The notes beneath the pieces are model-generated. The model was not told the origin of the DNA. It saw only the letters and a program-made list of their open reading frames with translations, and ran no database searches. 64,000 bases of DNA from Marsupella aquatica. Lineage: Eukaryota > Plantae > Marchantiophyta. Shown here one piece after another: positions 36,383 to 64,000 of this stretch. Location of the stretch: contig OZ316896.1 of assembly GCA_973895155.1 (NCBI GenBank), forward strand, positions 5,469,303 to 5,533,302, in the 5' to 3' direction. Each line of letters opens with the position of its first letter. Position 1 is the stretch's first letter. Both the position numbers and the translations under genes were made by a program.

Positions 36383-36429
36383 CCTGCCCGAGTCTCAACT
36401 TCCCAATTTGTCAAAAGCTCCTCATTTCC

Positions 36430-38893: not shown

Positions 38894-40558
38894 CAGTTTC
38901 AGAAGAAGAAATTGGACCTGTCACAAGGTGTTGCAAGTGTTTCTACGACCAGCACTTTGATCCCCGGTTCGTAGTCGTGTCAAGGTCAAACCCGTCCAGA
39001 AGAGGTGCGTGAGACGCCAACAATGTTGCACTTCCCGGTGTATTCCTTAGAGATTCTAAGCCGTCCTTGAATCTGATTCTGCCATAGATTGTGACACCCA
39101 AACCTCAAGCTCACTCCGCTCTGACAGCTCTCAAAGCTCTCTTAGTTCCTCGTCTTCATGTCTTGTTTGTTATTACATCCATACTTGGGTACTAACTTGA
39201 TTGTTGGCCTTAGAACTATTTTATGTTTTATGTTTATTAGTCTTGAGATCAATTTAGTATGCTTGTAATGAATAATATGATAAATGGAGTACCTAGAGTT
39301 TATCCCCCACCTGTTGTGCCATTTGTCAATCCTTTCTTAATTAGAATTCATTGTCTTAGCAAGCATACCATGAGAATGCATCTTCTTTATCATTTTAGGT
39401 TTGAGTTAATGGAAACAGTTATGAATAGCAATGCACCATTTGTATACCCGATTATTGTTTATGGAAATGAATGGAATGTAACTATTTTTATTTTATATTA
39501 GATGGATTTTAATAGACAACCCGTAAATATACCGGAGTTAGATTTGAATAGGCTTCCTAATAATGTATCTGATTTTCCTTCATCTATTGACATTAGAATG
39601 GTATGTCATAGGAAGGTTGACTGGAGAGATGTTTTAGTTAGAAAGTATGAAGATGAAAGATACAATGCTATGCTTAGGATGCCAGAGCCTGTGATTATAT
39701 CATCTATGGTAAATCTTAAGATCATAATCTTTGTTTTCTATAATTGACTTATCTAATTGTATGATTATTGGAAATTACAATCCATGACTTGACTTAGGAA
39801 GTAAGTTATGTGGAAAGAAGATAGGCCAATTTGAGGCTTAGTGTGAGGAAGCCGCTCATCGTAGAGTGGGACAAAGGCTGTGAGAGATATTTTAGAGGAT
39901 AATGGTGAGGGAAATTGATCGACAAAGGGGATCGCAAGGGTAATGTGAGGTGAGAAAAGACGTACTTTGGAAAGGTTTCTTCCAAGATAGGAAAAAAAAG
40001 AGCTCGGTGCTTCCCAAGAACTAAAGATTCCCCCAACACCGCCGCCTCTAATGCCCGGAAAAAGTGAGTCACCAAGCTCCCATAATCAACCATGAGAGAG
40101 CTTCAAAAATAATTGCAAGAGCTGGAGAGAGCTTTCGGAAATGAGAGCAAAGTGCTTTCGGCAAAGAGAGGAGTCGCGCGTTGTGATGCCTAGCCAGGAA
40201 TCACTAGGCCGGTTTACATGGTAAAAGCAGGAGTGTACCTTGGAAACACCTTAGTATAGTAACAAGATAAGGAAAATATAAACAATTAAGGGTGACTATG
40301 GAACCCGGGCCGAGGCCAGAAGTAAGGACGCCGGGGGAGAGAACACGATTAGGGTTAGGGCGCGCTAAGCGTCGGCGGCTAGGGGTGACCAACGGGAGGG
40401 AAGACCAGAGGAGGAGAGGGGTAAGGACCGCTCGCAAGGAATAGTGGCTCATTTGCAAGCACGAACTGGGCAGACGACTACGGGAGGCCAAATACTGTTA
40501 GTTGCTTAGGCAAGCACTTTGGGTGGGAACAGATACCAACGATTGAGTCAAGGAGGGT

Positions 40559-43500
40559 ATGAGCAACGTCAATCAAGCGGCATATTTTTGGGGATGCCTG
40601 TTCGAATGGGTAACTGAGTACATTGGGACTTACGAGGACAAGGAATCGGAGAGAGCAGCTCGAGAACGGCAGGAGCTCGCTCGACTGTGGGAGCTACAGA
40701 AGTCTGCCTTCTTAGGAGGAGAACTCATCAAGGCCGAGTTCTTGTGGACTCCTACTGCCAATCAGCTCGATGACCTTCTGTTTTGCGAAGACAGAATCGT
40801 CGGCATTCGGGAAGCCATCAACCGCTGCAACGACGCGCACTGGGAGTTGAAGGATAGCACGGAAGGGTGGACAAAGGCAACTGTGCTAGGAGAAACATCC
40901 ACGGCAGCCGAGATGAAGAGGAAAGGAAACAACAACAAAGAGGCCACCCCGGCAAAAAGAACGAGGTCGGCGGCACCAAGGAAACCAGCAGAGCAGCAGA
41001 ACAGGAGGCAGGGAGAAGCCAAAGAGGAGGAGGTCGATCGGACCATCAATGCCATTCCAACAAATGATGACACCTGGAAAGGCTGGGCGACGACCCTACC
41101 AGAGGAAGTGCAATTACATTTTGCACGGGAGGAGGATGCATGCTTTACGGCCATGCAGACCAAGAAGTACCAGGGCTTCATGGCCGGATCCGGCTTGGAA
41201 GCCTTTGTAAGATTACCATGGCTGAAGCCGGTGGTGCCGGACTCAAACTTATTAGAATTTGTGGGATCATGGGAACCCGAGACCAATTCCACGAGGGTGT
41301 ATGGGACGGATTTCTATCTCACTCCTTGGGTGATTGCCGAGGTGTTTGGCTTGCCGATGGGTAATAAGACCAAGGTTGATACCAAGAAGACCTTACATGA
41401 CAAGGAGTTCCGGTCGTTTCCAAGACCATCAACAAAGAATGGCTTCTTCCGGAACACCTGCACCAACCCGCACATCGGAGAGATGATCAATTTCTTGCGG
41501 GTGACCATGCATTGTAACTTGCCGAGGGCAGAGATCGGCAAGGCTCAAGTCTACCTGGCAGAAAGGCCAGACCCAAGCCGGGATTACAACGGGTACCTCC
41601 TCAACCAATTGAAGGAGATCTTGAAGGAGGAACAACAGGTGATCGGCGTGGGAAGCGTGTCCCGGCTTGGCTATCACATGCCGCTGTTGTGCCGGTATGC
41701 CAGAAGTCAAATCTTTGCCCCAGTACTTCCCCTATCGGCAAGGGCACCGGAGGAGGTTCCGGAGCAGAGGCCAGCAACAGAAGAGCCCAAACAGCCTCCC
41801 AGTCCTACGATCGAGCAGGTGTTTCGGCCAAGGAAAGAAGACTTGCCGATGCAGCAATCAGGCATGTAGAATCTGCTGAAAATGCTGGAGAAGGAGAGAA
41901 CGGCACCAGCAACGGCAACGGCACCGGTACAAGACACTGCCCCAGAGGCCAGCCTAAGCTGACTCAGGAGGGAAAACCCTTTTACCGGAGCCAAGGAGAG
42001 AAGGAGGCCGAAACACAAGCCGGGAGTGCGAATGTATGTGGGAGCCTCAAGCCCCGAATCGGAGGCAGAGCAGCCTAAGGCTCCTTCCCGCGGAGAGCAA
42101 GGGAGAGGACAGCCTGGAACCCAGGGGAGGAACAAGAGCCCGTGATCTGTGAGGCCGTTTTCACGGCAGGACCAGGGGAACAGAGGGGGAAGTCGGGAGT
42201 CCAAGCATTGGAGGAGGCGGTGGAGGACTACAGCAATGATAACTCCGGCTAAGGGTCGGATCATCATGTTCCAGGAGTAAGGACCTGTGGCCAATTTATC
42301 CCCACGCTTCCAAGAGTAGTTCGAGGGGACCCCACCCAGCATAGTAGCCCCGAGTCTCCCCCACCAGAGGTTGCTCCCCCGAGATTTGACGGCATAAAGC
42401 AGACGGCACAAGAATTTCAGGAGCGACTTAGGGAGGAAGAGAAAGTAGCCCTGGCTAGGGAGAAAGATTTACCAGGAGGAGATTGGCCGGAGGACATCAG
42501 GTGGCTTGCCAAAAAACGAAGCAACCCTCTTGCCATCGTAGAAGAAATCCGCAAGGCGGCTTGGGAGCAGAGGCCGAGGTGGTTGATGCCGATGACTTCT
42601 ACTTACTCCACCTATGCTAAAGATAGAGCCATGGAGTACGGGGAGATGTGTGGGGACCTGGCGCTCAATATCTTTGGGGAGGAGTTGGAGCAGGGACCTT
42701 TCTTCCAAAGGGAGAGGTTGGAGAAGCACCAATTAGAAGAAGCGGTGGCTTTGGAGAGAAGCAAGAAGGACGAGGTCATCCGACGGCTTAGGGAGAAGGA
42801 AGCCGAGGTGGAAGTCCTGCAGGCGGCCAAGAAAGCCCATGATGAGCTGCGGATTAAGCGGCATGAGCTAAACATCATGCAAGGACAATTGGATGCCGCT
42901 CAGTCTGGCAATCAGATTATCAAGGATAAACTGGCTCAGACCCAAGGGGAGTTGGCCAGCGCGGTCAAGGATAGGGAAAAGTGGAAGCAGGAGCTGAGGG
43001 ACGCAGAGGAGGCCCACTTAACCGCCAACAACCGGGCCATGGCAGAGACTCAGAGAAGGGAGAGGGCGTTGAAAGGAGAGCTCAAAGATATCCGCGGAGC
43101 CCTTGAGCAGAAGGAAGCCGAGTTAGGGAAATTCTATCAAGGGATTATTGCGAGCTGCAGCAGGAGCTTGCGTCCCTGACGGCCAGCTTCAAGGCCGACC
43201 TGCATGAAAAGGATGACCAGCTCAACCAGACTTATGCCAAGATGAATAAGATGGAGTCTGTGGTCGTAGCAAAACTCGACAAGGAGCTAAAAGCAACCCA
43301 GGAGGAGAGGGCTACCTTATAGAAAGAATTGGAGGAAGCCAAAAAGGATCTGGAGGAGGCGCGCAAGGACCTGGATGAGACCCAGGAGGAGTTGGAGGAA
43401 ATCACGAGGAAGATGGAGAACCTATAGCGGCGGGCCGACAACCAAACAAAGCGGCTAAAGAAACAAGCCATAATATTTAAATGCTTGGCTTCATCAGGTC

Positions 43501-43991
43501 CAACTCCAATTGGGGCAACCCAGTTACCAGGGGTAGTATTGGCCGACGGACAAGCCGAGACACACGCCCCGGTGCCGGAGGTAGGTAGCAAGGGGAAGGG
43601 ACCAGCTGTCGAAATAGGGAAGAAGAAGAAGAAGCGGAAACCTTCTGGGTCTGGGAGTTATACGGCTTCTCAAGCCGTTGTGACCGAGAAGATAAACCCG
43701 GCACCAACCTCCGGCATTGACACGGCGATGGATCCACCAGTCCTAGGAAGTGGGGATGGCAAAGCCGAGGCTGGGACAACCAGTAATGAAGCCAAGGTAC
43801 CAGATCCTCCACTAGAACATGACGGGGAGGCTGTGGTCAATGCTGAGGCCGAAGCCGAGGGTGGACCCAGTCAGGCCGATGAAGAGTTGACTCGGTCCGG
43901 GGTAGGTAATCTGTCAAAGGACGGACCAACAGCAGTGGCTACGGAGGAAGCGTTGGGGGCGTCCATTGAGGACCAGCCACCGGTGTCGTGA
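40559..43991 (+). pseudogene. Retrotransposon-type accessory protein (plant-transposon/Transposase_32-like domain + long coiled coil), several stops
   Basis: GLEAFVRLPW..LLEFVGSW..TRVYG..LT..IAEVFGLPMG matches GFEHLTSLPW..MTEFVKNY..TRLWG..LKMIFGLPKG of ORF 50323; coiled coil at 42583-43480; KKKKKRK. Confidence 0.6.
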
Positions 43992-45983
43992 CGGTGTAAG
44001 GGAGCCATCCCTTTTAGGGAGGGCGGACGTGGAGGTAGGAGGCGTGAGTGGGCAGGGCGGGCGCTGATCTCCAAGTTTAGACTAAGGATCAGGACCAGGA
44101 GACGGCCCTGACACTTACATTAGTGGGATTGCGGATCCACGAGTAAGGGCGACACTTGTGCTCCTGCCTCGCTGTACATAGGTAGATTACAGTTAAGTAG
44201 ATTAGGCTTACGCTGCAAGGAATCAGGCGGATCCACAACCAGGATAAGTACCTGGGCTGCAGGGAGTTGAGGGCCTCTTCTTTAACAAGTTTTTAGTTGC
44301 ACCAGCAGGGCTGGGATCAAGTAGTAAGAGAAGCTCTCGATTAGTTATACATGTTTCCTCATGCCTAAGAACTGAATAGAGTTGGCCTCACGGCTTAGTT
44401 CGCAGAGCTTGTGTATGAGATGTATTGTTTGTATGACAAGTGCATGGTATAACTCAGTCAGAAGCAGTCATTTTGCTATTTGTGTGTCGCATTAACTTGT
44501 GTGAAGAGTGCCCACATCATGAAGGGAAGTAGCAAGGGAGTGAGAGTTGGATGTGTCGAGCTGAGAGAGGTCTTAGCGGCTTAACCAAGCCAATTGGGGA
44601 TCATTTCGGCGGTGGAATCCAAACATACCTAATGGAAGACAAGGAGAGGAATATAAGGGAGGGCCTAGAATAGGCCGGCTAAGTATCTCATGACCCGATG
44701 AAGGATCTGTCCAATATATGTGTGTAAAATGTTAATAGTAGTTGAAGGAGGGTTAGCAGCGTCCCATGCCGCTAAGCCGCGGAAACAGCCTCGCCGAGGA
44801 CGAAACCTGCGGGAATCGGCTTGGGCAAGGGGGTTTCTTGGGTTTGGGGAGCCATGGGACGCACCACACACGTGGAGAAAGTAGAGAAGGAAAAAAATGA
44901 CTAATACAAGGGAAAGGGAAGGAAACCCCTTCCTTCTCCCTTCTCGTCTATTTTTCTTCCCGGCTCCCATTTTGCCTTGCGCCCTGGCTCGCGGCCCTAT
45001 GAAGGGCTCGCGTATGCCGACATGCGGCCCTCCTCGTGCTCCGTCCTCGCACCTCGCTGCTTTGCGCCCCGTCCCTTCGAGGCTGGGGGAATTTAATTTC
45101 CCCCCCCTTCCTTCACGTAGCCCTATGCAGGGCGTGTTTCCTTTTTGCCTCGGTAGCACTTTGCCTGCGCCCCAGCTCGCCCGCGGGGCCCTTTTAATGC
45201 TCTCCCCCCATCCTACGCCTCTCGGCTGCCGTTTGGCCCTCTCCCGGGAAGGTATAATGTGCCTCCCCCTGACTTGCTGTGCCCCATTTTGGGGGATTTA
45301 ATTCCCCCCGGCCTCTCCTTTCTCCTCCTTGTCACCTTCTCCCTGCGCGCCTCCCGACAACCTTTTTTTTTGCCCCGATAGCCTCACCCTGGCCTCGCAC
45401 TACTCGCGGGCTCACCGGCTCGCCTCCCTATGGAGGCTTGCCCCACTCTGGACCTTCCGCCACCCGGCTCCCCTTTTGACAGCGCCACACAGCAAGAAGA
45501 GGGCCTGAGGCTTCCTCCAAGGCCGAGGAGTTTAATTCCTCCCTTTTCCCGCACACAACCCTATGGAGAGCGCGACTCCCGACCACGGCTGCTTCAAAAC
45601 GAGAGGTTTTAAACCGCTCTAAAGCCTCCCTTATGGGACGGAAAAAAAAAGCTTCCACAAAAGCTTGCATAGCCATCCCCCTTGGGTATACCTCCTCATC
45701 TTGTCCCTCTCAATTATTACCCAGAGATTGGGAAAAAAAACAGCCGGGGTCTCCAAAATATTACTTGGTAGTACCCCCATAAGAATCTGTATTTTATTCC
45801 CCCACAACGACAAGACCCAAAAGAGCCAAGGGTCAACAAAAAGTTCCTTCCTGGTTTAAATGGCTCCGCCCCCCCTGAGCAACATGAACACACACCGGGT
45901 TGATTACCAGTTAAGAAATTTAAAAAATGAAAAACCCTTGTGTACATTGGCTTATTTATTTACATGCATCTTGCCAATAACAC

Positions 45984-48450
45984 CTAACCGTGGACTGTGA
46001 CGGGGACCCCATCACAGTCCACGGTGTTAGGATTGGGCTGGTATACCATGAGGTTTGCTTGAGTTGGTGCTGGTGGTCCTCCGCATCTAATTATGGGGTC
46101 CTCCCCCTTCAAGAACTCGACGCTTATTAACAAATTATACATCCACGCGGCTGCTGGCCCCGCCCGGCTAAACCGCTTCCACATAATCATTCCTTTACAC
46201 TTGATCTTGCCATTAAGATCCACGTCAACTTTGCCTGCTTATCCCAATTGATCCACTACCTCAATTAAAGAATGCGCAAAATAGTACCATCGGAAGTAGC
46301 GGGGTCCGCAAATGAACGCCCAAAAGGATATCAATTTGTAAGGGCATTACCCACCGCTTGAGTTAAGCCAAAAGACTTAATGGTGGGTCGGCCTCGTGTT
46401 GGGGCAGTCGCATCCTAACCCGGGGATCATGCTGCCATATCGAATGATATACAGCTATAGGGTTGGTCTCTATGTGTAGACCAAACCCGTTGTCGTCTAC
46501 AAGCTCCCAAAAAAATTGGTGTGGCATCCAGAAGATTGCAGGTCTGAAGTAATTTTCTAATCTATAATTATGTATATTTGCCTCTAACCATCTAATTAAT
46601 TCTCCGTAGGGGTTACCCTTTCCCAAAAGGATGTCTTCTCCCAAACACCCAGGCTCAAATCAGTTGGATCAAAGGGAAGCTTGTCGGTTTGAATAGTGTC
46701 CCCACACAAGCCACTGCAGCCGGATCCCTACCCAGTGAATAAAAATGAGTCATGGCAATATGACTGAATTGGGATAAGACGGGAAGGTCTATAAAGCTCA
46801 TCCACTCATTGGTTACTATAAGATGGGAGGTGTAGTAAGGATTGAAAATCACACTTATCCCATTTCTCTCTATATTGTGCCATCCGGCCATTTGGAGAAA
46901 GGTAACCAGGCGAGGCAGGGTATACCTCCCACAGTTGGTGTGGATCTCTCTCACCGCCCAGGACTTCATTACTACTTCTACTAAATCAAAGGCTTTCCTA
47001 TGTACTGCTAAACTATATAACCAATGAAGTTTCCATGCCGGACAGTCGGGATGCGTTGTGTTTGCATCCGCCATGAGAGCCACATAATGAGGATGGCCAG
47101 CGTGCTCTCACTCCAGTTTGGACAACAAGATTTATGTTACTCTATTGTTGGCCTTTCCTCCCAATCTAAAATATAAATCTGTGGGTTGGGTGAACCCTAT
47201 GGCCCCCGATCATTCAAAGAATGGAAGCATAAACCTGATCCGGACCGGGATGTCGTACCATATCCGTTCGTAGTCGTTTGGACAAATGGCCCTCTTGTTA
47301 ATCCTTGGTGCAGCCAAAATAACATGGAAAGTTTCCAACCCCATAGCTTCATCAACTTCAATAGCATTTCGGGATGCTATCTTCTGCCCCGTGAATAGTT
47401 TCCACGAGTTCACGCTCACCTTCTTGAGTTGTTTCAACTTCCTCTTGTGCATCGGATCTGCTAGTGCATCCTTCAATAACTTAGCTGCCGTGGCAGCCTC
47501 TTCTTGCAGGCCCTGCATTTCTAGTTCCCAAGCCTCGTAAGTGTCCGTCGGAATCCGGACCACCTTACTGCATTGTTGGACAAGCTCCTTACATGCTACC
47601 TCTTGTAGCCATCTCTTCCTCTCCTTCTCTCTTCTTTCTCTTTCTTCCTCTAATGCAGCAACGTATGATTGCCTGCTTCTCCTCTAATTGTCCTTGTAGC
47701 TCACGATTGGCTCTCCTTACTTTTTGGAGCTTCTCCTCACACTCCAAAGCCCCTAGTCTAGCTGATGCCTCTTTCTCTGCAAGCTCTTCCATCATTTTCC
47801 CATGCGTAGCTAGCTGGTCGGACAGTCAAAGTGCCAATTGTTCTTCTTCTCCTACTCTCCTACTCTCCTACTCTCCTACTCTCCGCTCCAACTCTTCAAT
47901 TACCCTTTGCAGCTCATCGGCCTACTGCTGGGATACAAAACCGCACGACGCATGCTGGGTGGTTACCACCTTTAACTCCTCTTTGGCGGTGGACAAGAGG
48001 TGGCTCCATTCTTCCTCCTTGTCAGCCAGCAGCTCCTACAGCTTCTTTCTCTCCTTCTGGGTCCTAACTTGGCCTTTAGGGTCTGTGTCCCAACCTTCTC
48101 TGTCCGGACCGCCTCCTGCAAGGCCTACTGAAGGGCTGTGGTTGCTTTCTCATTTTTTTCCCTTGCCTTGCCTTGCCTAGCAATCCGTCTGTGTCCTCCA
48201 GCTGTTTCAATATGATTTTGTTAGATTCAGTGGTGGACCTCGCCACCCAACGTCCTCACCGATCCCAGCACTTGCGCCTAAGTGCCCTCGGTGCCCGAAC
48301 GCCTCCACGGAATACCTCGAGCAAGCATCCAAGTGCCTCTAGCACCACCGGCGGCCACTCCCATACGAAGCCGCACTTGCTCACCTACATGACCGCTACT
48401 CAACGGTCCTCACTGTCTGCACAAACAACCAAGCACCTCGGTAAGTAACC
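45984..48450 (-). other. Cluster of closely spaced minus-strand ORFs of unknown function (coiled coil with RGRKRKKR, then 117, 142, 93 and 79 aa)
   Basis: ORFs 47589-47795 (extends upstream through TAG stops), 47210-47563, 46655-47083, 46363-46644 and 45984-46223; protein-like composition but no recognisable motif. Confidence 0.35.
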
Positions 48451-50214
48451 CTTCCGGATCTAGAACACACCAAGTCTAGCATCCTAACTCAAGCTCAACG
48501 GACGTTGGTAAATAGGTCAACGATAGGTCCTCCCGATGCCATAAGCCGGAACCAGAACCCACGCCCACTGTCCGTCCAGGACAGCTCCATCCTTGGGCGC
48601 GGCCCGGGTTCCCCCTCGTACCTATCCAGCACCAACTGACCACCCTGACCTCAGGACATGCTCATGGCCCAAATAGCGTAGCTTGTCCTAAAGCTTGTCC
48701 CAAGCTTGTCTCAACACGCCGGGACCAGAATGGCCCCGACTCTAACAACCGCTCCCGGTTTGCCCCACTAATGGTCTAGGGACTGAACGCCCTTGGGACT
48801 CAACCTCCATACCTACTTGGCCTTGCCTCCCCAACGCAAGCTCCCTTGGGAGGCTGAACGCGGCTTGGCTACTGTTCGGCAAGATTTGGCAACCGGGCGA
48901 GCTAACACCCGCAAACCACGAGAACCCATGGCACCCCCAGACCCAGCTGAGCTCAGGAGGGCGTAACCTTCCTCAAGAGATTTCCAACGCACCTAAGAAG
49001 TTCCCCAACGGACTTCCCGTTGGGAAGATATCACCATTTCTGTTTGGCGGTTTCCCTTAGTGTCGCGACCGCCGCGGCTCACGACTTCGGTTCGCCCTTA
49101 GCCCCCAGGGAGACACCACTCCCCTCATATATGCTTCTGGAGACCTGCCACCCCCGGACTAGCTTTGGTCCCTAAACATTTGGCCCCCAACTCGGATTCC
49201 ATCGCGCATAATGGGCGCGCCACCAATTGGCAACGCCCCTAACTTTCTTGATAGGCATCCGCAAGTGGAGTGCCTTAGCCCATTGTGACCGGGCTGACCC
49301 GGTGCTCATGCCTAGGCCCTCAGGTCTGATCGCCGCTCGGGGCCCCCGACCGGCCCAACCCGGATCGGGCCACAACTTGCGCCCCAAGCGTCCGTTGCCA
49401 ATGGCATCAACTCCATTGGCCTTGGGCCCAAGAGGAGCTCACTCCCAAGCCCTCAGAACTCAAAGCCCATCCGATGGTCTGGATGGCCACCCTTGAGCCC
49501 GGTGTCCTGAGGATAAGCAAAGAGGTGGGAAAAGAGGCTCAAGGGACACGCAGGGTGTATGGCTGCTTGAGATAGGAAACGGTTGCACCTGAGGGCCTAG
49601 GCATGAGCACCGGGTCAGCCCACATCATCACAAGCAAGCAAGCATGCATGCTTTCGAAACTCAAGCCATTTACATACTCATATCCAATCACAATCAAAAT
49701 AACTAGTTCAAGCTTCCCAATGTAATCCTCACAAGTCTAAGCCCAACATTCAATTGGTCACCATTCCTTTTCCAACACTTGATTGCACACAATCCCTTGC
49801 AACCTTCTAAGGTACACAAGTTCAAGTGTACATTCAATGTGGTCAAGTTAAGGGTCTGTGACGCCACCGGTACGGCGGTTAATGAGTGATTCAGTCTAAC
49901 TGCGCTCGGCACGCGCGTTAGGTGGGTCTTAGGCCGCTATTATTAGCATAACGACAGTATTTAGGTAATCATTAGGGGTAAGACATCATTAGGCAATAAG
50001 GGGGACTTCAGGTTCGGGCTGGCGGCGGGTCGCTATTCGCACACCCGGGTTACGAGCGTGGTGGGGCCCCTCCCTCGGGTCCGTATAACGAACTTAAGGA
50101 AGCGGCCACTGACGCACGCTGACTCAGACCGGCGGAGTGGCCGGTACACCACAAGCGTGAGCGGTTCAACCTATGGGCGTCGAGGAGACGTCGGGGATCG
50201 ACAAGCCCTCAAAG

Positions 50215-50221
50215 TATAAAA
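50215..50221 (+). promoter_or_regulatory. TATA box upstream of the long ORF
   Basis: TATAAAAGGGG ~100 bp before the ATG at 50323. Confidence 0.55.
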
Positions 50222-50322
50222 GGGGAGCCAACCCTTTGTAGTGCACCAGTCCATCAGTCCGCGCGCCAGCTTCGACCCCAGCTCTCTCGTTCTCTCTAGG
50301 TCGCCACTACTATCTCCTCTGA

Positions 50323-52965
50323 ATGTCGCACACGATCCTCTCCAGCTCGGCCATTCGATTCTGGACGCAGTTCCTATCTACCGGAAGGCACTTGGCCGAT
50401 TCATTGAAACACGCCAACCCGCGCCGATACGAGATCGAACGCGAATACGAGAGAGCCATCCGCCTAGCAGGACGACACCACTACGTCCTTAACTTTGACT
50501 ACCCATCTCAGAGCGAGCTTTACCGACCAGCTGAGGTATCTGGGTACTTCTTCAACAGAGACAAATATATCGGGTTCTGGGAAGCATTGCTTTGGCTTCC
50601 GGACGAGGTCTTCAATATCCCGGGTACAATCGACCTGCAGCGACATCACTTCGACCACATCCCTGCCCAGGTTCGGGCTGTCATTAACGGCGAGTCCAGT
50701 ACCAACCGTTCGACAAGGGCGTCCGCACTCGCTTCGGAGAACTTCTACCAGCACCTGCAGAGCTTCATGGGAACTCGGCCATCAACCAACATGACCAACT
50801 CAGCCAGGCCCGTACCCGTACCCGTACCCATGCAACCCCAGCCTCAACCTCAGCCTCAACCTCAGCCGCAGCCTAGCCAAACCCCACCACCTATCACCCA
50901 GCCAGCACAGGTACGCTCCGTCATCAACGCTGTGGATCTTAGCAATGACGACGAGGCTACCCCACCCTTGACCAGGCGGCCCAGAGGAACAAGCACTCGG
51001 GGGGCCGACACTATATCGTCCCCACCCCCTGCTCTGACCCCAGGAGCGGCCCCAGCAAACAACATTGTGACCGTGGCCGCCCCGGGCCCGTTACCAACCG
51101 CAGTGGCACTCCCCAGGCCCGATCGGGAGGATGGGGAAGTATCACCTTCCCCGAGTCAGTCACGGGGAAAGAAGAGGAAGGAATCCGCCACTGCATCCGG
51201 GTTACCGTTGGCCACGGTAGCCGTAGCCAAGGTGACGATGCATCGCATGGGGGAAAACGTTCATAGCAACATCCTCCATCCCAAGCATGCGGTGTACCTG
51301 AAGACTCAGGGATTTGAGCACCTCACCTCTCTCCCCTGGAACACTTGCAGGTACTACGGGGAGGACATGACAGAATTCGTCAAGAATTATGACGACGTAC
51401 GTCAACAGACTCGGCTGTGGGGAAGGAATATGTCCCTCATAGAAGAACGACTCAAGATGATCTTCGGGTTACCCAAAGGTGACCATCGAGTCGAATCACG
51501 GGCTCCCGGGGGCAAGGGGGCCAAGTACCAATCTTCAAGTTTTCCCTCAGAGGGATCAGTAGACAACGGGTTCATGATGAGGACCTGCCTCATGCCCGAG
51601 ATAGCTGAGCGGCTGGAGTTCCAGAGGTACGCTCTCCACATGATGGAACCCCGGGTGGAGATCTCCGCCGTCCAGGTTATCCAGGTCGAGAACTATCGAC
51701 CTAGGAAATGGGCGTCGTACTTCGCTAAGAAATTCCATGAAGAGATGGAGCGGCGAAGGAAGACGCTGTACATTGGCGGGAAGGCGTATTTCGCTAGCCA
51801 CATCGAAATCATTCTTGAGTGGTACGCCCGGTTTGATCGAGGAACCCTTCCCTGCATCAACGTTACAAAGCTGGTCCCAGCTAGGTGGGTTTTTCCGGCA
51901 TTGGAGAGACGGCCCCAACCCGAGGCCCGAAGTCCAGTGGACGCGCCAGCTTCACCCACCCCACCTCCACAAATAGCTGTAATCGTAACCGAGGAGGCGC
52001 CGGAGGGGTCGGTCATCGCAACCGTTGATGCGACCCAACTAGTCGGGCTAAGTACAGAAGTTGGTACGGCAGAGGTCTTACCCGAACCCGGGTCTCCCAA
52101 GGACCCGCCGGTGGCAATTCTGGAGAACCGGACATCGCTGCAGGAGGACACTCCAGCCCCTTCCAACGTTATGTCCCCAGGGCTGGACGTCACTGCCCCG
52201 GCCCCTGCGCGTGTTGATGTCTGCCCGTGCCCAAATCCGGACAGGCACAACTTGGACCACCCGGAACTCTTCGTACAGGGTACGTTTATGAACGGGCTTC
52301 TGGGAGATTTCTCTCATCAAATTGCCCGAGATACCGGGGAGTTCATGGCCCGGAAGGTAGCCTGTTTCTTCAATCAGGAGTTGGTTGCCGCCGTAAAGGC
52401 AGGTCGGGCCCAGTCGAAGGCCCTTCAGAGGATAGAGCGGTACCGGGTGGAGTCCGTGTACCTAAAGAACGAAGTGGCGGCTCAAGAGGCTGAGCTTCTG
52501 CAACTACGACCCAAGGTTGCAGCCGCCGATGAGTTGTTAGCAAAGGCGTACGCTCTTACCGCCCTAGCCGAACAGGCCAAAGCTGGGAACGAGGCTGAGA
52601 TTACACGACTCCGGAACCAGATTGACAGTTTGAAGAAACAAGCTGTCACCTGGCAGAAAGACCTGGAGGAGGCCGAGGAGCGAGCCCAGCAAGACGCGAC
52701 GGAGATAGCCACGCTACAGGCCGAGATGGCGCGGCTCCAAACCGAGGCCGAGAAGCAGGACCAGCTGGCGGGTAAACTGACGAGCGACGCCCAGCAGCTG
52801 GAGGAGGCATGTCAGGAGGCAGCAGAGGAGACGGACGCGGCGAGGCGAGAGAACGAATCTCTACTGGACCAGGTCTAGCTCCTCAAAGCGGACAATGACA
52901 GGCTTCGAAGGCAGCGGGATGGCCGTTCCCATTCGGGCGGCTCTGGCAAGCGTGCCAGGCATTAG
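50323..52965 (+). CDS. 851-aa ORF (880 aa if TAG 52876 is restored to CAG): Pro/Gln-rich linker, KKRK NLS-like motif, plant-transposon-type domain, C-terminal coiled coil
   Basis: Uninterrupted for 851 codons. The second copy reads DQVQLLK...GKHARH through this position, and read-through here gives ...GKRARH*. Confidence 0.8.
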
Positions 52966-55797
52966 CGGCGGAGTAGGAATAGATTAGGATTAGGATTGGC
53001 TTAGTCAGGCTCTTGGGACAAGCACCTGCCTTAGGTACAGCAGCGCTGCCCTGCTGTCCAGCCTGCGTAGATTAGGATCTTCTAATAAGACACAGTCGTT
53101 TTCCGGCCTGACTGTCAGCTTAGTTAGGACCTTAGTCAGCGAATCTTTGGCGAGAGGACACCCCGTCCCTCGGCTCTTAGTATTTAGTGCACCCCTCGGT
53201 AGAGGCAGGGGGGTTTTTAGTTTCAGAGTCGGACATCCGCGGGACATGCGAGGAGTCCCGACCTCTGGGAATGACAGAGTACCAAGGGGAGGGGGTAGGA
53301 CTAAGCTCGCCGGGCGAGTGCGGAGCCGGGCTCCGTTGTAGTGTGCACCCTCGGCCTTGAACCTGTGCATTCTAGGGCTGTCGTGTCAACTAAGTGTACG
53401 CATATGTTCCCTTTGTAGTAAAATCCTTTCCCATCATTTTCCTTCGTGTAAATTGAGATTGTATGCATGTGTGCGCATATGTGTGTGGGTTTCTCGTATA
53501 TGGGTGGCAGTGCCAGGCCAAACGTACTACCCGAGACGTGCACAGGGTGCAGCCTGCGGGTAAGTGGTTGCGAGCATGGGTTGAGGACCTGTATCATCGA
53601 ATCCGGATCGAAGGCGGACAGCACGAAGGCTTAGAAGCCCTTAAGCCGGGGTCGATCCTGCTATCGACTAAGGTACGTTCCGACGGCGGAACACAAACCA
53701 TACCTAGGAGGTGTCCGTATTTAGCAGTATGCGCACTTAGCGCTAGTTTACGAGAATAAGGTGCATTACGTGCTTCCCTTCCTGCCCGAACCCTCAGATT
53801 TACGAGGGATGTGCCCGTCTAAGCTGAAGTCTGAGTTAAGGCCGAAGCCTACGACGTGACAGGGTCACTCTTGGTTGTGGCTAAGACAAGTGGGACATCC
53901 AAAGGTATGCAAGGCATCTCTATGCACCATTCAAACATCCAACTTTTGAAACATGGGAAACTACTTTCGAAAAGTGACCTAGGGTTGGTCAACAAACTCC
54001 TTAACAAACATGGAATTGACCTTAGTCCCTTCCTCTAGTAGAACCACCAAGTATAATCCACAAACAACCCAATCCATCAATCAAAAATGCCTTCACTCTT
54101 TACTCTTGCAACTTCCCTCATGCATAATAACTACTTTTGAAAGTACCTTCATTCAACCCATCTACTTTCAAAAACACCTTCAAGCTCACAACAACATTCA
54201 AAAATGGCATGAAGACATTCATTCTAACCATTCCATCACTCATAGCCAAAGCAAGGCATCAACACACATCTAAAAAATGAGGATACCTCTCCTCTAAATG
54301 CATAGCAAGAAGGCACATGTAGCATCATGGCCTCCAAGTAAAAACATGGGTCACAAGCAAGACCCTCCTAGCAAAAATGAATCATCACCAAGTCTAATCA
54401 TCAACCAAGCATTCAAAATCCCTCCATAGCCTATCCAAGCTTCAAAACCCTAGTCTCCTTCTCTCACACTTCCTTCTATCAACCAAATCTACTTTCGAAG
54501 CTTCAAGTCAAGGAGTTTACAAGAGAGTAGTCCTTCTCAGTGAGCCATCTCTAATGCAAGACTCCCAAGCTTCAACAAGATTAGGTCTCATCTCCTCTAA
54601 GCTTTCAAAAATCTCCTACAAGTCCATTCTCCTCAAAACTTGAAGCAACAAACCTACATTCGAGTATGCCTTCTTGTGGGCAATCTCTCATGCAAGCTCC
54701 TTATGCTTCCTACTCACATCCTACCTCCTTCCTAAGGCTTCGAGTCAGCCTCTCCTACATTCGAAACCTCTCTCCAAATCCCTAGGAAAACCATCACAAA
54801 ACTCAATCTCTTCACATTCAAAGCTTCTACTCCATCTATCTCTCCACAAAATTGCCTCTACATCTCCTACCCTCAAAATCCTAAGGCCATGGCCAAGGAG
54901 GAGGGCTCCCCCTTCACTCATGCCTCATGCTCGAGCTCCCCTCAAGAGGTTCGCTCCTACAACTAAAAATGGGACTTAACACTCCAAAACGGCAAAACGG
55001 CAGCACTTCAGCAGCATCTAACCTCCGAACCCTTGGCCACTCAAACTTCCTCCTTTAGTATCCACGTGGGAAGGCCCAGGGCACCCACAAGCTTCTCCAC
55101 TTATGGTTTTAATCCTCGTTGAATCACAGCCCTCGATCTCACACCAATTAGATCAAACGGCCAAAAATGAGCCAAAAAACCCCTCCTTAGTAACTTGCAA
55201 ACCAAAAGAGCTTCGACCTTTTTGAAAAAGCCACGACCTCCACCAAGCCCTAACTCACATCTCCACCTTCAATCCAAACCATCCATTAACCAAAACCAAG
55301 ATCCACCGTTAAAGTAGATACATTGAATCTAGTCCATTTAAAACAAAAATCTGAATCTGGTCCAAATCTCACAAAACTGATGCACTTGGTCCAAACCCTC
55401 TTACATGCCTTGAACCTGGTCACCTCCTCCATGTATTCAATGAACCTGGTCACCATGTCGCCAAAACCCTAAATACCTTGCTTGTCAAGCAAGCAACCTC
55501 CATTCCGCCGATCCGCCAAATGATAACTTAATCGCTGGTCACAAATGAAAAACATACCCCACAATAGTAACAAGGGTGGATAGGCTCGACCTCATCCCTA
55601 CCTTGACCCTCATAACTCTACTTCCTCCTTCACCTTGGTCAAGTTAGCTCAAGTCAAGTCAACTTGCCCAAGTTAGAAGCAAAATTGGTTTCAACTTCCT
55701 TCACAAAACATGAGGATTCCTCCTTTAGGATGGAAACCTCATGACATCCACCCTTACCAAATCTGAGCAGCCTCTGGCCTGCTCCACATTGCAAATG

Positions 55798-58010
55798 TCA
55801 ATCTCCATCATCACTATCACCCTTACCGTTAGATGAATCACTTTCATCACCCTCAAAATCATTCTCATCATCTAGCACAACACTAGTATCTTTCTCCAAA
55901 AAGGTGTCATCAACAAATCGATCTCTCCTTTTGAACAACTTGACCCTTTTCCCTGCATAGAGATGGGCATGGGGAACACCATCAAGCTCACGAACTTTGT
56001 ATGTAGCATTGTCCCTCACTTCCATCACAACAAATGGTCCACTCCACCTCAAGGCAAACTTTTTAAGAGTAGAGTGCTGGTTTATCAAGCTCTCATCCGA
56101 AATGAGAACCCAATCTCCTTCTTGAATCTGGATAGGTCTAAGTCTCTTCTTCCTATCAAATCTCCCCTTACTCTCTTCTCTTGCCTCTTTCACTTTCTCC
56201 AAGGCCTCATCAATCTTACTTGGTATCAAACTGAAATGTTCAATCCTTCTTGCTAGGAGTTCCTCTCTTGAAACCTCATCTTTCCACTCAATGGATCTCC
56301 AGCTGTGTATAGCCTCCTCGATAGGCATCAAAGGTAGATGACCTGAGACCAACTCAGCTGGTGCAAAACCAGTAACTGAACTACATGTAATCCTATCTGC
56401 CATAAGTGCAAGTGGCAAAAAGTTAGGCCAAAGTGAAGCCCGACCTCTACAAGACTTAACTAAAGCACTCACTATAGGTGGGTGACCCCTCTCACTCTTC
56501 CCATTTCCCTCTGGATTGTAGGAAGTGGTCAGTTTAAGCTTAATGTGATACTTAGCAAAGAACTGACGAGCCTCATCTGAGTTTAACTCACCCCTATCTG
56601 CCTTCATCTGATAAAAACAACCATGCCTGGATATTATATCCTCTAACGCAAACCTACAAACAGGCTCGCTCTTGTTAGAAGCAAGAGCTCTACCCTCAAC
56701 ATAAGATGACAAATCCTCTCTGGCAAGCACCAAATACCTAGCTCCTCTAACCCCTCTTGGCATATGAACAATATCTAGCACCCACTGGAAATGCAAAGAC
56801 AATGGATGAGTGGGACTAAGACCATCCCTATGCTTGAATGACCTTTGAGTAAAATTGACACACCTCACAACTCTCAACATAAGTCCTAACATCTACATAG
56901 ATTCGAGGCCACCAATAGAATTGTCGAATTCGCTCATAGGTAGCTCGAACCCCTTTGTGGCCAGAAGCCTCAAAGTCATGGCACTCCTGCAAAACCTTCC
57001 GCCGTGTATCATCATCATCGACTACCCTCAAGGGTAAGTGTCCCCGCTTCTTTGGTCTCTTCCACAAGTATCCATCTCTAAGAAAAAAACCATAGGCTTT
57101 CTTCCTAATTCTCTCAAACTCCTCTCTACTCCACTCATTTTTCTTTTTCAAAGTGCTAAGGTACTCTCCAATCACTGCAAAATCTGTGGAATACAACTCC
57201 TCCTTGAACTCCAACAACTCAAACTCACTCTGAAATTTCTCCTTCCTCTTATAACTTGCAACACACACACACACCTATCTACATTTACACATGACTCACA
57301 CTCCTCAAACCTAGCTCTCGAAAGCATGTCTACTACCGGATTGTTCTTACCCAAAATATGCTCTAATTCAGGAGTGAACATGCGAATGAAAGCAATCCAT
57401 CTGAGCATGGCGATATCAGGGGTATCACAATTAGCAATCATACCGAGCAAAGGAAGGCAATCAGTTTGCAATACTACATGTGCTCCTATCAAATAATCCT
57501 TCTCTTGTTTGAGGGCACATTTTGCTCCCCATAACTCTCTCTTGACCTGTGGATACCTACGATGCCTCTCATTGAATATCTTGGCACCAAACCTAGTAGC
57601 AAACATCTGGCCATCTCCATCTTCTTGGCCAAGTACCCAGCCTGCTGCCAAAGGACTAGAGTCAACAGTAAGAATAATTGGCCTCCCACAAGCATAGTCT
57701 AGTGGCCTCAAAACTGGTGGACTCATCAACGACTCCTTGAGCTTTGCCATAGCTCTCTCACACTCATCACTCCATCAAAACTTCACTTTCTTTCTAAGTA
57801 GGCCATACAATGGATCCGCTATGTGGGCAAAATGAGAGATCCACACACGGTAAAACACACATGCTCCTAAAAATCTCTTCACCTCACTCACACTCTCACA
57901 TGCTCTCATCTCTCGGATGACATCAACTTTAGCCTGGTTAGGCAACCGCCCATAAGGTCCACACCGCTACCCAACCACTATGATCTCACGAAGTCTAAAG
58001 GCTGATTTTT
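55798..58010 (-). pseudogene. Gypsy element 3 pol 3' part (RT end, RNaseH, integrase)
   Basis: TVDSSPLAAGWVLGQ, QTDCLPLLG, GHKG..CEVC, LAREDLSSYVEGRAL, YNPEGNGKSERGH, WSGPF; same family as gypsy 2. Confidence 0.95.
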
Positions 58011-58299: not shown

Positions 58300-60214
58300 T
58301 AATCTGGTAATTCTCCCTGCTGGCTGAATGTGGCACACTGGGTTGTTGTTCACGCACCATTGCTAGTGTCCAGACGAGACGTGTTCAGACTTGTGAAGGC
58401 CGCGTGGCTTCCACCAACCGGGATATTCTCCATAGTCTTTGCTTCTTGAAATATTTCTCCCGCCCTCTCGCTTGTAGTAGGATCCCGGATTGTTTCATTG
58501 GTTTTGGTGGGGTTCTCCTCCTGTTCGAGTGCTTTGCAGTCCCGCGCTAAGTGGCCTTTTTGGTTGCATTTGAAACAATGATATGGTATATTTCTGAATA
58601 CTACAGGCTGCCAAATCGTGATGCCAGCAGTAATATCCACTCCAACGCAACGTGGTACTTCTCGGTTGGTGTCCCACAATATACAAGCCCTGTCATGGGG
58701 GAAAGAGCTGCGCTCGTCACCCTGTATGTAGTATAGAACCTTCCCAAATGACTCGGCTATTCATTTCCTGCATCCCTCCAGTACTAGTGCTCGAAATGGT
58801 AGCTCGATCCAGACTAGCAATTTCATGTATGAATCACTACTTGCATCAAACGATGGGTCCCAAGGAAAAGTAAATACAAATTTCCGGTCCATGAAGAAGG
58901 GGGCCAGTTCCAAAGCAGCATCTCGATGCTCTGGAAATTCAAACGTGATCACATAAAAATTCTTACCAGCGAATTTGATCTGAGTTATTGGCCAGCCTAA
59001 GTCACGATTAAAAACCGATTCAGCCCAGTCCCTGGAGACCGGTAGTAGCGGTGGGCGATCAGTGAAATAGCACATCATTGTGCAGTTGTATAGTTCTGTA
59101 ATAGAGAGAGTAGCCTCCTCTATAGACCACTGAATCCTGGTGTGAAGCGTGTTAGGCCAATCGCCAGTGGAGCTGATGGCAATTTTACGTAGCATTTCCA
59201 AACAGGTATTTGGTAGTTCATCAGATAACCCAGCAAAGTCATCCTCATTTGTATGTTGAGTTCTGGCTGCATTAACGTGTTGTGGCTGCCGATTGCTTTG
59301 TCGTGGTCTGTGCTCCGTCTGGTGATCAAGGCCTACAGCCTCCCTCTGAGAACCCTGTGCATCTATCGTGGAGGGCCTCGTCCCTCTCTTGGGGCCAACA
59401 GCATTACGTACCGGAGCATCACCAGGCGCTAAGTTCCCAAGTGCCCCACGCCCCCTTGCAGGCGACTTAGGTATCGAGGAATGAGCCTGTAGCTCAAGTT
59501 CCACCGCTTCCTCCGCCTCTTGTATATCTAGGTCCATCTGATCTGTCCATGAAGGTCCGGAGCGTGGGATAAACTTTCTGTTGCTAGGCCTGTTGCCTTT
59601 ATCTGTAGTTGTTCTGCTACCGTCAGCAATGCCAAACAGATCAAAAGGGGCAGACTTAGGCCCGCCCCTCGCGTCTTGCAGGGAGAACCTAGTGCTACCA
59701 GAACGCTCCCCAGCCCATTGCCCTCCTTCTTCCTCTTCAATTCGTCTAGCACCTAGAGCGGAGGGATCCCGTCCATCTCCTCCTTGGGCCAACGATCGAT
59801 CCCTGTGAAAAGACCCCATAGCCAACGATAGTGATGATCCCCACCCGGGGCCACGACCATAGCCAGTTCACATCCGCGGTCCCACCCCGCTAAAAGGATC
59901 CATCTGTTCTAGTCGTGACGCTTAGCAGCCTACTCACCTTGCAGGCCCAGTTCAAATTATTGCCAAAATTTTGCCCTCCATTCACAAATGTGAAGTGCTC
60001 CAACTGATTCGATTCCTCTCCGTGACACTTCTGACCACCAATGTCCAAGCAAGTTGCAACGCCTCCGATATCAAGGTCCATGCGAGGAGTCAACGCCCTA
60101 TAAAATGATCAAAATGGTAGTGTGAGCGTGTTGGTGAGTCCAGGGAAGTCAGGCAGCCATAGCCACACCTTCGAGTTCGCTCCGCCCTCCCGCCCTCTCA
60201 GTTCCTCTCAGTTC
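58300..60214 (-). mobile_element. L1-type LINE copy C (5' UTR + ORF1), 3'-truncated
   Basis: ORF1 58350-59825 with one TGA and a CCHC knuckle; 5' end GAACTGAGAGG..GCGGAGCG..TGGCTATGGC matches copy A. Confidence 0.88.
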
Positions 60215-62560: not shown

Positions 62561-62738
62561 TGCGTGCACTAGTAATTTTACTTGCATACATTATATTTGT
62601 TTTGATTGCAATAGTACCAGCACACATTTTTACGTTGAATGTGTGCCACTTGACTTTCATGCAAGCGTTTAGGCGTAATCCATGCTCTCTTGGATTTATT
62701 AAAAATAAAATGATGAGGGACACTCTCTCCTCATTCTC

Positions 62739-64000
62739 ACGTTTTGATAATTCTCGCGTCAAATTGATTATGTTTTCATTTCTCATTTTTTTTTCTATTG
62801 TCACGCCGTAAGCTTTGTTTTTACACGGATTTTGGCGTAGACGGACATAATCTCCATTAGTTTTGAGCGTTCGGGCAAGGAGGGATGTGCAAATTGAACC
62901 TTACTCCCGTAATCTAGCGCTAAGTGCGCCTAGTCCTACTTACAGAAATGTCATGGGTATAGTTTGTGTTCCACCGCCGAATTGTACCTTCAGTCGATAG
63001 CTGGATCGACCCCGGCTTAAGGGCTTCTAAGCCTTTGTGCTGTCTGCCTCTGATCCAGATCCGATGAAACGGATATCCAACCCAGGCTTGCAACCACTAT
63101 CCGCAGCCTATACCCCGTGCACGGCTCGGATAATACGTTTGGCCAAGCATTCTCTACCCATATACGAGATTCATACATGCAACTGAACTCACACGCATAC
63201 AATCTTGGTTTACACAAAGGAAATAGTACGAAAAGACTTTACTTTAGAATCTGTCATACACATATACACGGTTGACTCGACATCTCTTGAGTAAACAGGC
63301 CCAACGACAGAGCGGCATACACTACAACGGAGCCCGGCTCTGCACTCATCCAACAAGCTTAGTCATACCCTCCCTCCTTGGTGTTCTTTCACTCACAAAG
63401 GCCGGGACTCCCCGCACATCCTATGGATACCCGGTTTTGAAACTAAAATCCCCCCTTGCCTCTACCGGGGGGTGCACTAAATACTAAGAGTCGGGGCTCA
63501 GAACGGCCACGTGCTCGAATCTATGCTATCCAAGATTCTAAACTCTGCTAACTGTCAGGCCGTAAAATGACATGTCTTATTCTAAGATTCTAACTACGAC
63601 GGTTGGTCGGATAGGACAGCGCTACTAACTAGTTTTGGCACTTGTCCTTATCGCCTGACTATCCTATTCCTAACTCTATCTTAAACCTATTCCACTGCTA
63701 ATGTCTGGCATGCTTGCCAGACCTGCCTGAGTTGGATTTGAAGCGGCCATCCCATTGCGTCCTGAGCCGGTCGGCGTCTTGCTTGAGCAGCTGGACCTGG
63801 TCCAGTAGAGATTCATTCTCTTGCTTTGCCGCATCCGTCTCCTTCGCGGCTTCCTGGCATGCCTCTTCCAATTGCGAGGCGTCGCTTGTCAGCTTGTCCA
63901 CCAATTGGGCATGCTTTGTAGCTTCTCCTTGAAGTTGTGCCACTTCCGCCTTCAAGGCATCTATCTCGGTTGCATCTCCTTGGGCCCAAGCGTCGGCCTC
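62739..64000 (-). mobile_element. Second, diverged copy of the ORF-bearing TG...CA element (runs off the window)
   Basis: Starts TGTCACGCCGTAAGC versus TGTCACGTCGTAGGC (reverse complement of the 53861 end); ORF tail KLTSDASQLEEACQEAA.ETDAA..ENESLLDQV and downstream non-coding sequence are homologous. Confidence 0.92.

Follow-up and report, generated by a model that had tools for sequence, protein, structure and literature searches.

On balance, unit A, a 4-kb insertion in the window (the whole stretch of 64,000 nucleotides of Marsupella aquatica DNA that was analysed; Table 1), is probably a solo LTR from a family of the Ty3/Gypsy type in which the LTR itself holds an accessory gene of the PMD/VANC fold, with a product that would act as a nuclear, DNA-binding self-activator. 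That the unit is a solo LTR is in itself likely, and an anti-silencing role of the modelled protein is a tentative proposal with somewhat less than an even chance. The observations beneath this reading are the ends and target site duplication (TSD) of the unit, an empty site, a repeated family, selection on the ORF, and a like layout in a distant family.

Table 1. Features of unit A, its relatives, and its host element (window coordinates)
Feature	Position	Strand	Remarks
Unit B	40182..44868 (approx.)	+	Distant broken relative; candidate ends TGTGATG...CACCACA
Left TSD	49852..49856		GGGTC; a single copy at the unoccupied site in run X5
Unit A	49857..53861	+	4,005 bp, TGTGACG...CGTGACA; likely solo LTR
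5' non-coding part	49857..50322	+	Predicted U3/promoter and CT-rich leader
TATAAAA	50215..50221	+	108 bp upstream of ATG; motif-level match
ORF	50323..52965	+	880 codons, ATG at 50323
N-terminal helical domain	50323..50706	+	aa 1-128, conserved
KKRK	51169..51180	+	Putative NLS-like motif at aa 283
Central domain	51211..51876	+	About aa 297-518; predicted VANC21-like (DUF1985/PMD-type) fold
C-terminal coiled-coil-like region	52423..52902	+	aa about 700-860, 71% E/K/R/Q/A/L
3' non-coding part	52966..53861	+	Integrase-type end; AATAAG at 53084 and 53755
Right TSD	53862..53866		GGGTC; exact 5-bp copy of the left one
Host element	53867..57800	-	Ty3/Gypsy RNase H-integrase and start of 3' LTR; unit A inserted there
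Copy C	62799..64000	-	3' part, diverged subfamily, flank TCTAT; continues past the window

The TG...CA ends and exact 5-bp TSD described in an earlier note on this DNA were found as TGTGACG and CGTGACA with GGGTC on both sides, and one contig of a related organism (run X5) joins both flanks with the unit absent. A loose scan of the 64-kb window for TG..CA ends with 5-bp repeats returned 47 pairs, so that the TSD by itself is not rare; a strict scan for the 7-mer ends gave 2 of 198 pairs, with 0.19 expected. The ends are fixed independently by the stop of the homology with copy C, which lies exactly at 53861 in unit A and 62799 in copy C, by a drop in depth at both ends, and by the empty-site contig. 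Unit A is an integrase-type insertion, and its 5' end is identical at 7 of 10 places to the commonest Del/Tekay U3 att sequence, TGTAACACCC (PMC4029996). Self-BLAST at word size 7 and a repeat finder detected no terminal direct repeat in the unit, in keeping with the "no internal direct repeats" of the earlier note, and the short terminal repeats that might have spoken against its reading did not appear. The longest repeats are a direct family of 22 nt and an inverted pair of 23 nt at 74%, and terminal inverted repeats (TIRs) are limited to an imperfect 7-mer. A TRIM or LARD is ruled out, as the unit has no pair of direct repeats at its ends that would enclose a PBS and a PPT.

The family is much repeated, with thousands of contigs from related organisms spanning the ORF and the non-coding parts equally. 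Summed depth in run X1, which does not equal copy number, was 74,000-463,000 over the 26 inner bins versus 1,300 and 6,400 for the outer bins, which cover the flanks; run X2 showed the same pattern, and none of the contig loose ends listed (24 of 1,109) lay at the unit A termini. With equal depth over the ORF and the non-coding ends and conservation of the ORF in copy C and unit B, there was no sign of the ORF being a separate insertion. Copy C, announced earlier as a second diverged copy starting at 62739, exists with the flank TCTAT, but its terminus is at 62799; it is 73% identical to unit A over 1,209 nucleotide columns, and its reading frame is open at the position of the in-frame stop of unit A. 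Unit B is much more distant, with a broken ORF (about 40559 to 43991), 25% amino acid identity in the central domain, and a nucleotide alignment to unit A at shuffle level apart from a 29-nt motif. Its ends are tentative, and its candidate TSD (CGCGT/CACGT, one mismatch) is of a kind that easily arises by chance. The layout is nevertheless alike: the ATG lies 377 bp from the candidate 5' end versus 466 bp in unit A, the stop 877 bp from the candidate 3' end versus 896 bp, and a single TATAAA likewise stands upstream of the ORF.

Within the 64-kb window, none of the five family termini has a partner copy, a PBS, a PPT, or any internal region next to it, and metagenome scans yielded 0 confirmed loci from 22 (close alignment) and 74 (relative P0051) pattern matches. 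The single close copy pair found on one contig in Calypogeia has accession numbers in mirror order, which suggests inverted copies and not an LTR pair. Units A and C each sit inside LTRs of other Gypsy elements; the 3' LTR of the element hosting unit A starts near 55747 with a purine tract followed by TGTCATG. Both Gypsy elements of the window are bounded by LTRs of their own that differ from unit A, and are thus hosts and not parents.

The long, nearly intact ORF of about 880 aa that had been noted before has 880 codons and one internal stop, an in-frame TAG at codon 852 (52876-52878), 28 codons before the end. The comparison of copies that the earlier note had proposed gave a pS of 0.74 and a pN of 0.15 between A and C (86 codons, Fisher p 3e-16), which shows purifying selection on the ORF (C-terminal region versus copy C); a gap of this size was absent from the other five frames except the antiparallel one. 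The absence of gag/pol was also borne out, since Pfam returned no such domain and merely two sub-threshold coiled-coil matches. Gag is rejected as an identity of the protein (no CCHC knuckle, no Gag Pfam domain), as is an env-like ORF, there being no transmembrane helix (maximum 19-residue hydropathy, 1.13). Among 1.84 billion proteins, 37 relatives were found at E<=0.001, one of them full-length (906 aa, 29%, E 2e-92), and all those with a named source belong to the liverwort Calypogeia fissa, whose loci include CAM6101870, CAM6086213, CAM6082161, and CAM6090539. A word-index search with the central domain gave no match, and one with alignment A1 gave 0 matches among proteins of 1,587-4,530 aa and 3 among shorter ones; the zero among long proteins would argue weakly against a fusion to gag-pol.

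The central domain, modelled with a pLDDT of 89, very probably has a VANC/PMD-type fold. The top Foldseek match was VANC21 (9LNJ; E 1e-3, TM 0.51; next match, E 0.67), VIA-align superposed 206-209 residues at Z 8.2-8.3, rmsd 4.1, and 9-10% identity, and VANC21 was the only one of 48,161 solved chains at Z>=5 (next, 2.4). Neighbours in the ESM Atlas, to be taken as leads only, included DUF1985 (0.80) and PMD (0.79). Neither the ORF nor the 34 aligned members reached the Pfam cut-off for PMD, DUF1985, or the Athila group, the best such signal being Transposase_32 in 1 of 34 members (E 0.059), and a viral fold library gave no match at E<=0.001. For the N-terminal domain, no clear fold match emerged, to a Gag capsid or otherwise; the highest Z, 5.3, came from helical chains of no relation, and Atlas matches were <=0.80. 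VANC and MAIN/PMD have a common fold (PMC13547354; bioRxiv 2024.09.27.615353), and as judged from the model, the protein is related by fold to the known accessory proteins VANC/DUF1985 and PMD. The gene is therefore less alien than the earlier note implied, although its placement is still unusual. The match to VANC21 is a distant one, with 9% identity, an rmsd of 4.1, and a Foldseek E-value right at the 0.001 limit; moreover, a common fold by itself shows no function.

Similarities to known systems extend beyond the fold. VANC21 of Arabidopsis VANDAL21 (PDB 9LNJ/9LNK, DUF1985) resembles the predicted central domain; it is likewise encoded by a mobile element and has a conserved domain amid variable low-complexity linkers plus a coiled coil. 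It belongs, however, to a eudicot Mutator-like DNA transposon and has introns, whereas the present ORF is intronless, has an extra N-terminal domain, and lies in a liverwort unit with TG..CA ends, a 5-bp TSD, and no transposase. The targets of VANC are 9-bp motifs in tandem arrays (PMC5735166), of which the present unit shows no clear counterpart. The accessory ORFs of OTA Ty3/Gypsy elements, e.g., Ogre PMD (PF10536), Athila ORF1/Transposase_32 (PF03078/PF20167), and Retand TRP28 (PF04195) with Smc-like coiled coils, are also long, selected, non-gag/pol ORFs with a globular domain, an NLS, and a coiled coil in integrase-type elements; they are internal, whereas the present ORF belongs to a unit that lacks terminal repeats, lies between its two att-like ends, and reaches no Pfam cut-off. 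Del/Tekay elements share LTRs of up to 4.4 kb, a CpG-rich region before the TATA box, and the att end at 7 of 10 places, and the Tekay 5' accessory ORF follows the promoter in sense orientation and has a predicted NLS (PMC4029996, PMC11728184), but it lies outside the LTR and no VANC-type domain has been reported for it. This likeness in LTR-type features does not by itself assign the family to a lineage. MAIN, MAIL1, and MAIL2, which a published comparison places in this fold group, counteract silencing at DNA motifs; they are angiosperm host genes, and PMD is angiosperm-only according to a review (PMC8616336), whereas the named relatives of the ORF are from a liverwort.

The earlier note had left the choice between an LTR containing a gene and a new single-ORF element. 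Replication logic favours the LTR, without deciding the matter: with the TATA box 360 bp inside the unit and no terminal repeats, the 5' end could not be regenerated via RNA, and a parent with paired copies is therefore indicated. A parent with two such LTRs flanking gag-pol would have inserted with a 5-bp TSD, and recombination between its two 4-kb LTRs would have left a single one. The TATA box claimed earlier is the sole TATA match on either strand of unit A (TATAAAA at 50215); it could direct an mRNA with its start some 30 nt further on that carries the ORF. With a possible end of this mRNA inside the 3' non-coding part, a solo LTR would keep promoter, gene, and terminator. In the full element, the promoter at 50215 would read on to gag-pol, as in Ogre and Tekay with their 5' accessory ORFs, and R/U5 would hence be unusually long; alternatively, the ORF might lie in U3 with an unseen second promoter. 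The protein would enter the nucleus via KKRK, oligomerise through its coiled coil, and bind short motifs in the non-coding DNA of the family, where it may oppose DNA methylation or Polycomb marks in trans and so keep the family transcribed against host silencing. With 4 kb, unit A falls within the range of Del LTRs (1.1-4.4 kb; PMC4029996). No published case of an accessory ORF placed inside an LTR was found in literature searches. Retroviral LTR-encoded genes, i.e., MMTV sag and the overlapping nef, are likewise protein genes within a terminal repeat that are carried by both ends and by solos; they lie in U3, are much shorter, and encode unrelated proteins.

The non-coding DNA of the unit contains candidate cis-acting sequence. 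Units A and C are 73% identical in the 3' non-coding part versus 26% at the synonymous sites of the ORF, and the former is therefore constrained in the manner of cis-acting LTR sequence; a motif near 53678 is common to A and C and weakly to B. RNA folding of this part was no better than that of shuffles (z 0.37). The 5' non-coding part is CpG-rich (o/e 1.07) and has a cluster of five same-strand TTAGG. In total, 10 TTAGG were observed on one strand versus 2.3 expected, none of them in the ORF on that strand, but the excess lies within the best-5-mer shuffle range (mean 7.0, maximum 11), and copy C has just 1; tandem motif arrays of the VANDAL kind are absent from the non-coding DNA of unit A. 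The CpG o/e of A (0.88) and C (0.84) compares with 0.28-0.31 in neighbouring Gypsy and CACTA sequence, and some other 1-kb segments of the window reach 0.74-0.83. The CpG richness is also accounted for by a young age or by the CpG islands of ordinary LTRs (PMC4029996).

With motif and CpG evidence this weak, the solo LTR may encode a protein that is not anti-silencing and that serves the particle, nuclear import, integration targeting, or another form of transcription control. No function is known for the accessory ORFs of Retand, Athila, and Ogre (PMC7264820, PMC11963269), and the location of both A and C in LTRs of other Gypsy elements would suit such a role. We consider it somewhat unlikely, because both characterised fold groups (VANC, MAIN/MAIL) oppose silencing through DNA motifs and the protein has no transmembrane helix.

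A stand-alone single-gene element with att-like ends, which borrows a Gypsy integrase and moves as a DNA circle or by an unknown route, is improbable. Both two-ended members (A and, tentatively, B) are indeed TSD-flanked singles, none of the five termini touches a PBS or PPT, relatives lie on Logan contigs of 3.6-4.8 kb in four of the clusters examined, and the failure to find a gag-pol fusion among long proteins adds weakly to this. Two or three solos per 64 kb are, however, expected for long LTRs, contigs of 3.6-4.8 kb suit an LTR just as well, and an element without an enzyme, a Gag zinc knuckle, or terminal redundancy would have no means of replicating the 360 bp that precede the TATA box.

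The nearest fold comes from a Mutator-like DNA transposon, and the unit might accordingly be a non-autonomous DNA transposon, Ginger-like with TG..CA ends or a TIR-less Mutator derivative, with a VANC-type gene and a transposase acting in trans. VANDALs without clear TIRs and Ginger elements, which end in TGT..ACA, can be cited as parallels. The TSD is 5 bp here versus about 9 bp in Mutators, there is no TIR beyond the imperfect 7-mer, and the ends look like Gypsy att. These points make a DNA transposon quite improbable, as does the frequency of PMD-type ORFs in Ty3/Gypsy elements (57% of Ogre; PMC6317226). An ordinary element with an internal accessory ORF that underwent a single deletion or became chimeric, as suggested by the published accessory ORFs found, all between LTRs, and by a purine tract at 53284 common to A and C, is very improbable and largely refuted: the LTR start would remain twice and is seen once, depth is even over the whole unit across thousands of contigs, the layout recurs in copy C and unit B, and no TG follows the tract in either A or C.

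The further-reaching proposal that liverwort Ty3/Gypsy LTRs carry a VANC-type anti-silencing gene, with solo LTRs as cassettes that protect the family in trans, is unlikely as a whole. If true, solo-LTR formation, the usual route of removal by the host, would leave complete expression cassettes, the PMD/VANC fold would have been invented long ago by retroelements and would occur beyond the flowering plants, and this would be, within the literature searched, the first sequence-specific anti-silencing system found in a retrotransposon. What accessory ORFs do in the LTR elements of plants is an old question, and a VANC21-like ORF in a self-contained 4-kb cassette, with one gene and one short candidate target region, allows a direct test. 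A recent paper argues that VANC originated by capture of MAIN-like host proteins; a VANC fold in liverwort-type mobile elements would instead support a deeper transposon origin. If the gene is part of the LTR, every solo LTR counted in these genomes is also a gene cassette, and annotation tools in which LTRs are taken to be non-coding would mis-annotate the gene as a host gene, as the unnamed Calypogeia proteins suggest.

Unit A, a single TG...CA unit with one long ORF, is a real feature. Its 4,005 bp begin with TGTGACG, end with CGTGACA and are flanked on each side by GGGTC, which confirms the terminal dinucleotides and exact 5-bp target site duplication (TSD) claimed in the earlier note. Apart from an imperfect 7-mer, terminal direct and inverted repeats are absent, in line with the claimed lack of internal direct repeats, and the domain search of the ORF found neither gag nor pol, as had been stated. 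The TATA box noted earlier is the sole TATA match within the unit (50215, ORF strand), and the ORF is indeed long and nearly intact, starting with an ATG at 50323 and comprising 880 codons with a single in-frame TAG at codon 852. A loose scan for TG..CA ends with a TSD returned 47 pairs across the window, and a strict scan 2 of 198 pairs, with 0.19 expected. The ends of A are fixed independently of the TSD, because homology with the diverged copy C stops exactly at A's final base and a contig of sequencing run X5 carries the empty site, i.e., both flanks joined without the unit. The only other strict pair, which has the exact 5-bp flank ATATT and overlaps CACTA Tnp2, is probably due to chance.

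Features of the window, in order of position
Feature	Position	Strand
PHD finger and BRCT fragments	7592-8296 and 9453-9740	+
CACTA Tnp2	~11-15 kb	
Second strict TG..CA pair	11456-18395	
Three related LINE copies (DUF4283/CCHC ORF1; one with most of ORF2)	20800-21800, 32600-39100, 58300-60000	
Ty3/Gypsy pol region	26372-31490	+
Surroundings of the C insertion and related 3' LTR of the plus-strand Gypsy	62610-62798 and 31538-32250	
Unit B (tentative ends)	40182-44868	+
Tight hairpin	45990-46025	
Broken ORF (coiled coil, globular stretch)	46400-48300	-
Near-perfect inverted repeats	49285-49325 with 49586-49625	
Unit A	49857-53861	+
Ty3/Gypsy pol region	55798-58000	-
Unit C (runs off the window)	62799-64000	-

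The second copy with a common terminus exists as proposed, 60 bases away from the position first assigned to it (62739). It is 73% identical to A and is flanked by TCTAT. A third family member within the 64 kb, B, has a layout like that of A: its broken ORF extends from ~40559 to 43991, and its central domain is 25% identical to that of A (E 1.5e-16). The best A-like 5' end and a candidate 3' end with a one-mismatch TSD lie 377 and 877 bp from this ORF, compared with 466 and 896 bp in A; since such a TSD is weak on its own, both TG..CA candidates are tentative. None of the five family termini in the window adjoins a PBS- or PPT-like sequence.

Unit A is one repeated entity under selection. Seven of the ten listed sequencing runs, with five organism labels, contain part of it, four of them at least half of its words. 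The four runs examined yielded 8,153, 12,757, 397, and 55 fitting contigs, and depth in X1 and X2 was of the same order across the ORF and non-coding parts with a 10- to 100-fold fall in the flanks, contig depth over A not being equivalent to copy number. The run that covers A best may be the source sample itself. Over 86 codons, A and C differ with a pS of 0.74 and a pN of 0.15, and 41 of 75 differences are at third positions (p 1e-4). Among 40 variants selected from the 682 listed, 32 fall in the ORF, 16 of which are synonymous versus 34% expected (p 0.04). Identity between A and C is 73% in the 896 bp of 3' non-coding DNA versus 26% at synonymous sites, and the 3' part is therefore under strong constraint.

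A phmmer search retrieved 37 relatives of the A protein (E<=0.001), including P0035, a mere Pro/Gln low-complexity match. Ten of 30 representatives checked carry an organism name; in every case it is Calypogeia fissa, a leafy liverwort, and the protein itself is unnamed, the remaining entries being unnamed or hypothetical. A separate protein search added one further Calypogeia protein. These names make a liverwort source of A likely. A relative of 906 aa aligns end to end (29% identity). The domain order is an N-terminal helical domain, a Pro-rich linker with KKRK, the central domain, a second linker and a coiled coil; neither a transmembrane helix nor a zinc knuckle was found in the A protein, and Pfam PMD (plant mobile domain), DUF1985, Transposase_32, and Athila ORF1 all stayed below cut-off for the ORF and aligned relatives. 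Five relatives (P0055, P0020, P0009, P0016, and P0022) keep the central VANC-like domain and lack the N-terminal one; the family therefore has at least two architectures. AlphaFold2 modeled the central 242 residues from a 34-row alignment (pLDDT 89, pTM 0.83), and the top Foldseek match in the PDB was DNA-bound VANC21, the anti-silencing protein of the VANDAL21 transposon (9LNJ; E 1.0e-3, probability 0.99, TM 0.51; runner-up E 0.67). VIA-align superposed 209 residues (Z 8.3, rmsd 4.1) at 9-10% sequence identity, and in an unbiased run over 48,161 chains, 9LNK was the sole chain with Z>=5 (8.2; second best 2.4). The N-terminal model (pLDDT 84) had no clear structural match in the fold searches. 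Kinship of the VANC and PMD folds has been published (PMC13547354; bioRxiv 2024.09.27.615353).

The leading reading of A is a solo LTR, which would be the remnant of a paired parent after LTR-LTR recombination. Such a parent is the simplest source, because a promoter 360 bp inside the unit, without terminal redundancy, enzyme or terminal inverted repeats (TIRs), bars self-copying via its own RNA. Seven of 10 positions at the end of A agree with the Del/Tekay att (PMC4029996), and A's length is compatible with long plant LTRs, those of non-chromoviruses reaching about 5 kb (PMC6317226). No paired element was seen around A-like units in the window, metagenome scans for family members found no loci, and in Calypogeia the accession numbers of the only close pair run in mirror order, which suggests inverted copies. 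A stand-alone single-gene element, consistent with the missing pairs, is unlikely in view of the barrier to self-copying, and a DNA transposon, in view of the missing TIRs, is still less likely. Both A and B carry a single TATA box ahead of the ORF, which suggests that the gene is transcribed from the LTR promoter itself; a solo LTR would then retain a cassette of promoter, ORF and 3' end signals.

According to PMC7264820, PMC6317226, PMC11728184, and PMC11963269, accessory ORFs are common within the internal region of Ty3/Gypsy elements from plants, up- or downstream of gag-pol, and their function is described as unknown. Judged by its modeled fold, the A gene is an accessory ORF of the PMD/VANC group, unusual in its placement and from an under-studied lineage. 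In the literature covered (the main text of mostly open articles), neither a plant retrotransposon with a whole gene in its LTR nor a liverwort family like A was found. The accessible text of the liverwort genome paper (PMC12885004) reports Tat, Athila, Phygy, and Tekay lineages and contains none on solo LTRs.

VANC strips DNA methylation from its own family (PMC5735166), and MAIN/MAIL counteract Polycomb (bioRxiv 2024.09.27.615353). Because both characterized groups with this fold work against silencing and bind, or localize to, short motifs in DNA, the A protein is probably a nuclear DNA-binding self-activator; anti-silencing proper is possible, if somewhat doubtful. A counter-silencing role of transposon-encoded PMDs has been proposed in PMC8616336, where the domain is termed angiosperm-only. 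The CpG o/e of A (0.88), C (0.84), and B (0.63), compared with 0.28-0.31 in neighboring Gypsy and CACTA DNA, 0.57 in the LINE and as much as 0.74-0.83 in other 1-kb windows, is weak side evidence, as age and ordinary LTR CpG islands also account for the excess. Also weak is the excess of TTAGG in the non-coding DNA of A, where one strand has 10 occurrences versus 2.3 expected, a count within the best-5-mer range of 300 shuffles (maximum 11); C has one occurrence.

Across the window, plant mobile elements lie nested in one another. Its two Gypsy pol regions, which we take to resemble the non-chromovirus Phygy/Selgy type, are related (66% nt), short and strongly CpG depleted (o/e 0.28-0.29). Unit A lies within the minus-strand Gypsy's 3' LTR, the start of which follows a purine tract near 55747, and the host sequence of C matches the plus-strand Gypsy's LTR at 71%. 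As parents of A, both were rejected: neither host LTR is similar to A, and the two elements are therefore targets. With both placed copies in LTRs, a small sample, the family may favor the LTRs of other elements. The end of A's host LTR contains near-perfect inverted repeats, with a tight hairpin to their left. The broken minus-strand ORF nearby matches neither the family profiles nor Pfam and is another unclassified element. Adjoining the CACTA Tnp2, sub-threshold fragments of an NSD-type PHD finger and a BRCT domain are possibly captured or decayed gene pieces.
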